From the NCBI GenBank assembly GCA_964555295.1, contig CAZKRL010000003.1, positions 9,487 to 73,486 on the forward strand: a stretch of DNA of 64,000 nt. The letters are read 5' to 3'. Of this stretch, positions 62,530-62,760 are shown in pieces; positions within the stretch are counted from its first letter, which is position 1; each line of letters begins with the position of its first letter. The position numbers and the translations under genes were made by a program. Source of the DNA: an uncultured Comamonadaceae bacterium (GTDB lineage Bacteria; Bacteroidota; Bacteroidia; Flavobacteriales_D; Sanyastnellaceae). Below the pieces are notes generated by a model that worked only from the letters and a program-made list of their open reading frames with translations, made no database searches and was not told the DNA's origin.

Positions 62530-62760
62530 TCAGTTGAACTTCATACCATAAATTTTCCTGCTACCGTATATAACAGCTGCAGCCACGAGAAAACCTACGC
62601 CACCATCAATTGGGCATACCACCCCGAAAGGCTCACCGCAAGGGGGCTCTTCACCGCCAATTGCAGGGGGTGGATCAATGGCCTGAATAACACTTGATGT
62701 GCAAAGAAATATTGCTACTACAAAAATTTTAATCAAGTATTTTGGGCAGAGGGTCTTCAT
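62530..62760 (-). CDS. 76-aa pre-protein: signal peptide, Pro/Gly/Cys core, and a P-I-D-G-G / TM / basic C-terminal sorting-like tail
   Basis: I verified the translation by hand: MKTLCPKYLIKIFVVAIFLCTSSVIQA / IDPPPAIGGEEPPCGEPFGVVC / PIDGG-VGFLVAAAVIYG-SRKIYGMKFN. It ends 11 nt upstream of xrtF on the same strand. Confidence 0.6.
   Translation of the reverse strand: MKTLCPKYLIKIFVVAIFLCTSSVIQAIDPPPAIGGEEPPCGEPFGVVCPIDGGVGFLVAAAVIYGSRKIYGMKFN

Follow-up and report, generated by a model that had tools for sequence, protein, structure and literature searches.

A PID-CTERM Mini-Protein as the Probable Dedicated Substrate of an Adjacent Exosortase X in an Uncultured Member of the Flavobacteriales

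Introduction

A short open reading frame (ORF) lies immediately upstream of a small exosortase gene in the window, i.e., the whole 64-kb stretch of DNA (64,000 nucleotides) analyzed here. A first-pass annotation, made from the sequence alone, read this ORF as a cognate exosortase substrate composed almost entirely of sorting signals and named the neighboring enzyme exosortase F (XrtF). The locus raises the question of whether the mini-protein is a genuine gene product, whether it is the substrate of its neighbor, and to which exosortase system the pair belongs. A new sorting signal for XrtF would have mattered, since the substrates of this enzyme are an open point in Flavobacterium biofilm biology (PMC10936215). 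In Flavobacterium johnsoniae, deletion of xrtF or of its partner gene abolishes biofilm formation and lowers surface colonization (PMC10936215), and the XrtF substrates, which are still unidentified, are predicted to be unlike PEP-CTERM proteins (PMC10936215; bioRxiv 10.1101/2024.12.02.626408).

Mini-Protein Gene and Its Layout

The ORF encodes the translation MKTLCPKYLIKIFVVAIFLCTSSVIQAIDPPPAIGGEEPPCGEPFGVVCPIDGGVGFLVAAAVIYGSRKIYGMKFN. Its length of 76 codons, its location on the strand of the exosortase gene, and its translation, which is identical to the one annotated previously, are all confirmed from the sequence. Between the stop codon (62532-62530) and the TTG start codon (62518) of the 175-aa exosortase ORF lie 11 nt. 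Reading the translation also bears out the proposed layout, which consists of a signal peptide, a 22-residue Pro/Gly/Glu core with two Cys, a P-I-D-G-G motif, a helix, and a basic cluster. The n-, h-, and c-regions of the signal peptide, the helix, and the tail listed below were read from the sequence.

62530..62760 (including the stop codon), minus strand: PID-CTERM mini-protein gene, a 76-codon ORF with an ATG start
62680..62760, minus strand: Sec-type signal peptide, codons 1-27, MKTLCPKYLIK / IFVVAIFLCTSSV / IQA (n-, h-, and c-regions)
62614..62679, minus strand: 22-residue Pro/Gly-rich core, codons 28-49, IDPPPAIGGEEPPCGEPFGVVC, with C41 and C49 as a C-x7-C pair
62599..62613, minus strand: P-I-D-G-G signature, codons 50-54, start of the NF046080 match
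62563..62598, minus strand: hydrophobic helix of 12 residues, codons 55-66, VGFLVAAAVIYG
62533..62562, minus strand: basic cytoplasmic tail, codons 67-76, SRKIYGMKFN

The mini-protein is not confined to this window. An identical copy is present on 11 contigs of public collections (NCBI, JGI, ENA, and Logan), and its homologues include four cluster representatives with 65-97% identity. A family profile built from 30 members retrieved 846 proteins at E<=1, the best 120 of which are all 69-119 aa long. The nucleotide entropy over the 20 codons from PIDGG on, calculated for 67 distinct loci, is 0.41 bits at the first codon position, 0.15 at the second, and 1.58 at the third, indicating that the mini-protein sequence is under purifying selection: the DNA drifts while the peptide stays constant. 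This pattern and the wide conservation rule out a spurious or chance ORF.

In the mini-protein alignment (A2), the core contains the invariant C41 and C49 and the nearly invariant P40, P44, F45, and G46. The signature follows with invariant P50, D52, G53, and G54 and with I51 at a conservation of at least 90%. In the helix and tail, L58, A60, A61, G66, and K69 are invariant, and G62, G67, K68, and Y71 are conserved at a level of at least 90%.

Family of the C-Terminal Tail

The mini-protein matches the NCBIfam model NF046080, "PID-CTERM protein-sorting domain", with 37.8 bits (cutoff 26, E 1.2e-09). The match covers residues 50-71 of the mini-protein and positions 2-23 of the 25-position profile, and PID_CTERM is the sole NCBIfam family that matches the protein at E<=1. 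The tail in the window reads AAAVIYGSRKIYG, against the consensus AAGLAYGGKKAYD. As in its relatives in A2, the motif, helix, and basic cluster stand at the extreme C-terminus of a protein with an N-terminal signal peptide. The mini-protein itself gave no match in the local copy of Pfam-A; in precomputed annotations, Pfam PF28310 (PID_CTERM) is assigned to every homologue, including the cluster representative with 97% identity (P0001). Furthermore, the 72-76-aa homologues P0134, P0157, P0162, and P0183 carry the GenBank/NCBI name "PID-CTERM protein-sorting domain-containing protein". The tail had been put forward as a possibly new sorting signal, a suggestion that does not stand, as matching C-terminal models exist already (NF046080 and PF28310). 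Within the 64-kb window, a PID-type tail occurs in this one ORF only.

Adjacent Exosortase

The gene downstream of the mini-protein gene is as follows.

61991..62518, minus strand: exosortase X (XrtX), 175 aa, TTG start, match to NF046081

The enzyme matches the exosortase/archaeosortase signature TIGR04178 with 50.2 bits (cutoff 23). Among the exosortase subfamilies, the best model is XrtX (NF046081) with 170.5 bits, which is a marginal pass at 0.5 bits above the cutoff of 170. The second-best model is XrtF (TIGR04128) with 87.9 bits, below its cutoff of 90. The same order holds among the relatives: for the window enzyme and 14 relatives, scores are 154.7-194.5 bits on the XrtX model and 64-93 bits on the XrtF model, and each of the 14 relatives scores at least about two times as high on the former model as on the latter. 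The nearest relatives (P0007, P0008, and P0009) reach 154.7-166.1 bits on the XrtX model, just under the cutoff; the clade of the window enzyme thus sits at the edge of this model. A further relative, P0025, is named "exosortase X" in GenBank. A sequence search of the PDB returned no solved relative of XrtX.

In an alignment of 23 sequences (A1), C88, R129, and H148 of the exosortase are invariant. Cys, Arg, and His are likewise absolutely conserved in the EpsH/exosortase family (PMC1569441).

The earlier proposal of a cognate exosortase substrate therefore survives in its layout and in its synteny with the adjacent exosortase, but not in the naming of XrtF as the enzyme, which misses the XrtF cutoff and is outscored about twofold by XrtX. 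Since the window enzyme is not XrtF, this locus is silent on the question of the XrtF substrate. The sorting signal and the enzyme family are both in curated databases already and are annotated automatically. The models NF046080-NF046083 (PID_CTERM, XrtX, XrtX-associated protein, and XrtY) carry consecutive accessions, suggesting that they were curated together as one system. Our literature search found no paper or experiment on PID-CTERM or XrtX; the string matches were unrelated uses.

Enzyme-Substrate Synteny

The pairing was examined in both directions. For the enzyme-to-substrate direction, XrtX motifs were used to collect 80 loci, with one genome per species, all of them metagenome-assembled. 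Nearly all are labelled Flavobacteriales, Crocinitomicaceae, Cryomorphaceae, or unclassified Bacteroidota, and nine bear other labels (Chryseobacterium and Comamonadaceae). None of the 80 enzymes is more than 50% identical to that of the window. In 75 of the 80 loci, exactly one ORF with a P-[IVLM]-D-G-G motif, a hydrophobic stretch, and a basic tail ends just 5' of the exosortase start, and no further PID-tail ORF is found within +/-4 kb. The tail ORF is thus conserved beside the adjacent exosortase in related genomes, as had been predicted for a dedicated pair. Mini-proteins of 69-80 aa account for about 65 of these 75 ORFs. The products of the other 10 or so are somewhat larger and contain a Cys-rich mature domain, about 70 residues long, that ends in C-I-P-I-D-G-G. 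Five of the 80 loci have no adjacent PID ORF. An assignment of these five to another exosortase subfamily was considered and rejected, as the four that were scored gave 169-179 bits on the XrtX model (cutoff 170), far above the other models.

For the substrate-to-enzyme direction, metagenomes were scanned with DNA patterns taken from the tail only, which carry no bias toward short proteins, and 80 loci were collected. A PID-tail ORF was present in 78 of them, for a total of 80 such ORFs. All are small, with 56-149 codons between stops; counted from the probable start codon, most encode 59-90 aa. Directly downstream, 47 of the 80 ORFs have an XrtX/XrtY-type exosortase; most of these enzymes are clearly XrtX-like, and four match much more weakly. 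For 6 more ORFs, there is no room downstream. Some 20 of the PID mini-protein genes lack an exosortase within 3 kb, and several of these adjoin a Wza-like polysaccharide export gene.

Promoter and Surrounding Module

The mini-protein gene is flanked by the following features.

62784..62814, minus strand: promoter-like site of the Bacteroidota sigma-A type, TTTG-N19-TACTTTTG (TAnnTTTG -7 box), 24 nt upstream of the mini-protein ATG
62868..64000 (cut by the window end), plus strand: polysaccharide co-polymerase (Wzz/Wzc-like), divergent from the mini-protein gene
61440..61994, minus strand: partner membrane protein, 184 aa, with its ATG at 61994 overlapping the XrtX TGA (ATGA)
60974..61459, minus strand: conserved 161-aa protein, its start overlapping the partner gene by 20 nt
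54608..60922, minus strand: giant Cys-rich repeat protein, 2104 aa as listed, with an N-terminal signal peptide

A sigma-70 promoter and terminator scan gave results at shuffle level and is uninformative for Bacteroidota; it was replaced by a test for TTTG/TAnnTTTG, the Bacteroidota promoter consensus (PMC9723704). The pattern TTTG-N18-21-TAnnTTTG has a single match in the whole 64-kb window. Of 143 related loci, 107 have a TAnnTTTG box at the corresponding place upstream of the gene, whereas the expected number is 0.068 per 220 nt. We infer that the site at 62784-62814 works as a promoter. The terminator scan, which is weak evidence here, gave no terminator-like site between the minus-strand genes.

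The partner protein is homologous to the gene 3' of XrtX in related loci; among 80 candidates, the 50 best have phmmer E-values between 1e-31 and 6e-20 (best match E 1.6e-31). On NF046082, the model for the "XrtX-associated membrane protein", it scores 16.7 bits, against a cutoff of 75. Six partners sampled from other XrtX loci also remain below this cutoff (27.9-61.3 bits). This model appears too narrow to classify the partners, which were therefore compared by homology across loci. On the XrtF-associated protein model TIGR04127, the window partner gives no match at E<=0.1, and the partner of one relative reaches 16.6 bits on it (cutoff 35).

The genes farther out are also conserved. A homologue of the 161-aa protein is located downstream on the same strand in 73 loci, and the 20-nt overlap recurs in L084, a relative with 80% identity; the protein matches no Pfam or NCBIfam family and has no informative PDB match. 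The giant protein, the likely start of which is the ATG at 60826 (MKNFF...), has homologues on the same strand downstream in 57 loci, a count limited by flank length, and the copy in L084 is 2065 aa long. It gave no family match and no PDB match, and it is only from synteny that we infer its role in the module. On the other side, the co-polymerase passes the Pfam Wzz model PF02706 (27.3 bits, cutoff 25.5) and shows weak similarity to Wzc and to TIGR03007, the chain-length determinant of the XrtA system. A homologue with the same divergent orientation is found upstream of the mini-protein gene in 71 loci; in L084 and L001 it is 814-816 aa long. The gene order in L084 is that of the window, and beyond its Wzz-like gene lie genes for a glycosyltransferase, an acetyltransferase, a CTP-transferase, an aminotransferase, and a dehydrogenase. 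Collectively, the divergent Wzz-like gene, the mini-protein gene, XrtX, the partner gene, and the genes for the 161-aa protein and the giant Cys-rich protein form a conserved six-gene module.

Mature Peptide

The signal peptide was assigned only by eye and from a hydrophobicity heuristic, and the latter places the cleavage site of the window mini-protein at C20|T21, versus A27|I28 from the alignment. Substrates of signal peptidase I in Bacteroidetes follow a Q-rule (PMC5837995). Indeed, Gln is found at the predicted +1 position in 174 of 196 family members, which fits this rule. In A2, I28 of the window protein aligns with a column that is Gln in 26 of 30 relatives. On the basis of the Gln +1 rule and this alignment, signal peptidase I is predicted to cleave the window protein at A27|I28. 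The small clade to which the window protein belongs has Ile or Leu in place of Gln at the mature N-terminus. A lipoprotein reading was rejected, as the signal peptide has no lipobox before a Cys.

From the predicted signal-peptidase site to PID, the mature stretch has a median length of 21 residues in the 196 family members and measures 18-32 residues in all but five. Its composition is 33% Pro and 23% Gly. The tiny size of the cargo had been recognized correctly in the first-pass annotation, but it is not unusual, as had been supposed; with this median it is the norm across the PID-CTERM family. Two Cys are present in 190 of the 196 members; their spacing is exactly 7 residues in 185, and in 181 PID begins right after the second Cys. 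By analogy, C41 and C49 of the window protein probably form a disulfide.

A disposable sorting signal would usually be less conserved than the helix and cytoplasmic tail of these proteins are, and the cargo is tiny in every locus sampled. Both features fit poorly with a role in sorting alone.

Proposed Mechanism and Alternative Readings

We consider it probable, at roughly 80%, that the mini-protein is the dedicated, co-transcribed substrate of the adjacent XrtX in this uncultured member of the Flavobacteriales. This reading builds on the observed family membership, synteny, purifying selection, and conserved module. Weighing against it are the narrow margin of the XrtX score, the low NF046082 score of the partner, the PID mini-protein genes with no exosortase nearby, the five XrtX loci lacking an adjacent PID ORF, and the strong conservation of helix and tail beside so small a cargo. 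In the PGF-CTERM/archaeosortase A system, the substrate is cleaved and lipid-anchored. By analogy with PGF-CTERM/archaeosortase and with PEP-CTERM/exosortase (PMC1569441), the export, cleavage, disulfide, and fate of the peptide may be pictured as follows. The mini-protein gene would be the first in a transcription unit under the consensus Bacteroidota sigma-A promoter. The pre-protein would be exported by Sec, and signal peptidase I would remove residues 1-27. [quoted passage not shown] C41 and C49 would probably close a C-x7-C disulfide loop abutting this motif. XrtX (C88/R129/H148), together with the partner membrane protein, would then cleave at or next to PID via an acyl-enzyme intermediate and either release a Pro/Gly-rich peptide of about 22-25 residues or transfer it to an acceptor. 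Given the conserved polysaccharide neighbors, a surface polysaccharide or a cell-envelope component would be the most plausible acceptor.

A bolder form of this substrate reading is that the peptide itself is the functional product, that XrtX ligates it to an acceptor made by the module, and that PID-CTERM is not a cargo tag. We regard this as possible, although doubtful at present. Candidate acceptors are the giant Cys-rich protein, a lipid, and the polysaccharide to whose assembly the Wzz-like co-polymerase would contribute. If this is true, a surface polymer would be capped or anchored by a peptide, which is not known as a function of any exosortase system.

The high conservation of the helix and cytoplasmic tail, the single copy per locus, and the near lack of cargo (median 21 residues) would also suit a protein that is never cleaved and that serves the XrtX/partner complex or the polysaccharide machinery as a small subunit or regulator with a single membrane pass. 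However, the most invariant block of the protein is the periplasmic C-x7-C-P-I-D-G-G, which is where PEP-CTERM-type signals have their processing motif (PMC1569441), and the adjacent enzyme retains the catalytic Cys/Arg/His. In addition, a pair of one enzyme and one substrate is expected to show high conservation of the signal. An uncleaved subunit is therefore unlikely, at odds well below those of a cleaved substrate.

Considerably weaker is the view of the mini-protein as the precursor of a released, disulfide-looped signalling or antimicrobial peptide, with the exosortase as its maturation protease and nothing attached to the surface. The product would be small, Pro-rich, and, by prediction, Cys-bridged; the Gln start in most members would give a blocked N-terminus; and a dedicated protease is encoded next door. 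Yet the mature sequence is near-constant across lineages in which XrtX is only 40-50% identical to that of the window, a constancy not expected of bacteriocins or signals that diversify. In the loci examined, no gene for a peptide exporter, for immunity, or for a receptor was found; the genes called there are polysaccharide genes, and a giant surface-type protein is constant. A released signal or antimicrobial peptide is thus very unlikely.

Finally, although XrtF is the second-best model of the enzyme, the two families are similar in size and each has a partner membrane protein, and the XrtF substrates are still to be identified, the mini-protein can hardly be an XrtF substrate, a reading refuted at the level of family assignment by the sequence models, with a sub-cutoff XrtF score that XrtX roughly doubles in the window and in 14 of 14 relatives and with partners that fall short of TIGR04127 in both the window and one relative.

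Comparison with Known Systems

Within the catalogued PID-CTERM/XrtX system (NF046080, PF28310, NF046081, and NF046082), the tail and the enzyme of the window pass the curated cutoffs, and the gene order of substrate, XrtX, and partner is common to the window and the 75 XrtX loci described above. The window differs in its edge-of-model XrtX (170.5 bits), in its partner with 16.7 bits, and in its mature N-terminal residue, Ile rather than Gln. As the enzyme is XrtX and the signal is the catalogued PID-CTERM, the locus does not add a new kind of system. What remains of interest is that this is a catalogued system for which no paper was found, with a uniformly tiny substrate that would yield an almost invariant peptide. 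With its 1:1 adjacent mini-protein, this predicted processed peptide, and the six-gene module, it offers a simple model for finding the acceptors of exosortases.

A described parallel in architecture is the PEP-CTERM/exosortase A (EpsH) system (PMC1569441). In both, the substrate begins with a signal peptide and ends in a motif, a helix of about 12-14 hydrophobic residues, and a cluster of basic residues. Both enzymes have an invariant Cys, Arg, and His, and both systems are linked to exopolysaccharide genes, among them one for a chain-length determinant. However, the motif in the window is PID instead of PEP, and the mini-protein has no match to the PEP-CTERM model (TIGR02595) at E<=1. EpsH has eight predicted transmembrane helices (PMC1569441), while the window enzyme has about 175 aa. 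The number of substrates may differ as well: PEP-CTERM proteins are diverse, with a median of eight per genome (PMC1569441), whereas the window holds one PID tail in 64 kb and its relatives one per locus within +/-4 kb, as counted over the scanned loci.

XrtF (TIGR04128) of F. johnsoniae, with its TIGR04127 protein, resembles the window pair in being a small exosortase from the same phylum with an adjacent partner membrane protein. One difference lies in the substrate: none has been identified for XrtF, whereas XrtX has an obvious candidate directly beside it.

PID-CTERM mini-proteins scoring 37-48 bits on NF046080 are also found at other metagenomic loci. In three of these (L123, L164, and L101), a small PID-type ORF is situated directly upstream of an exosortase Y (NF046083)-like enzyme. 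Several of these mini-proteins lack the two Cys, and the XrtY-like enzymes score best on the XrtY model, with 115-125 bits (cutoff 160), and only 44-57 bits on that of XrtX.

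PID-type tails in other contexts

The tail of the mini-protein (the P-I-D-G-G motif, a short hydrophobic helix and a basic cluster) also occurs beside exosortases of another kind. In four metagenome loci (L101, L123, L161, and L164), small ORFs with tails of the PID kind lie directly upstream (~3000–3900) of XrtY-like exosortases. The ORFs of L123, L161, and L164 pass the PID tail test, that of L101 fails it, and the two Cys residues are often missing from these ORFs. Although XrtY is the best model for all four exosortases, each scores below its cutoff (115–125 against 160 for those of L101, L123, and L164). 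The location of XrtY-like exosortases directly 3′ of such ORFs suggests either that two or more exosortase subfamilies share the PID signal or that there are additional subfamilies still lacking a model.

For a separate subgroup of PID mini-proteins, with the sequence ..DPGCDPLDPACPIDGG..GAKKAYD (L104, L109, L114, L126, L130, L139, L156, and others), the 3 kb around the gene contain no exosortase gene. Four of these loci (L109, L114, L126, and L156) have an ORF of ~270–280 aa directly 3′ of the mini-protein gene; by its score, that of L114 is a Wza-like protein of polysaccharide export, and the other three look similar by eye.

Within the XrtX loci themselves, a minority clade (L058, L059, L061, L062, L064, L067, L072, L073, and L078) carries, adjacent to the exosortase gene, a larger protein and not a mini-peptide:

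~3590–3990 in each of these loci with full flanks, upstream of XrtX: gene for the ~130-aa PID-CTERM protein

Its mature domain is Cys-rich (10–12 Cys in ~70 residues), and it ends in C-I-P-I-D-G-G-L-G-F-L-I-A-G-G followed by an RRRKE tail.

Detection by family models

All seven partner membrane proteins tested fall below the curated cutoff of 75 bits set for NF046082, the model of the XrtX-associated protein (16.7–61.3 bits), and the scores of the XrtX family (154.7–194.5) straddle the NF046081 cutoff of 170. Consequently, automatic pipelines will give many XrtX-system loci an incomplete annotation.

Genes accompanying the XrtX module

Three further features of the window are as follows:

60974–61459, minus strand: 161-aa protein
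54608–60922, minus strand: giant Cys-rich secreted protein, 2104 aa
48371–53554, plus strand: PorU (T9SS sortase; NF033707, 1242.8 bits) and PorV (PF19572)

The 161-aa protein has neither a signal peptide nor a family match. Its start lies within the partner gene, with an overlap of 20 nt, and 73 related loci have a homologue at the equivalent place. The giant protein consists of Cys-rich repeats with motifs of the GCTD..ACNY..DDGSCEY type and ends in a dockerin-like DINGDGFVSVADLL segment. It has no match in Pfam, NCBIfam, or the PDB and no recognised C-terminal signal of the T9SS or PID kind; at least 57 related loci encode a homologue downstream of their XrtX module.

The PorU and PorV genes are separated from the XrtX module by a few kb. 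After them come ispF (YgbB) and a gene for a cytidine deaminase, and the same neighbours are found in L084, an 80%-identical relative.
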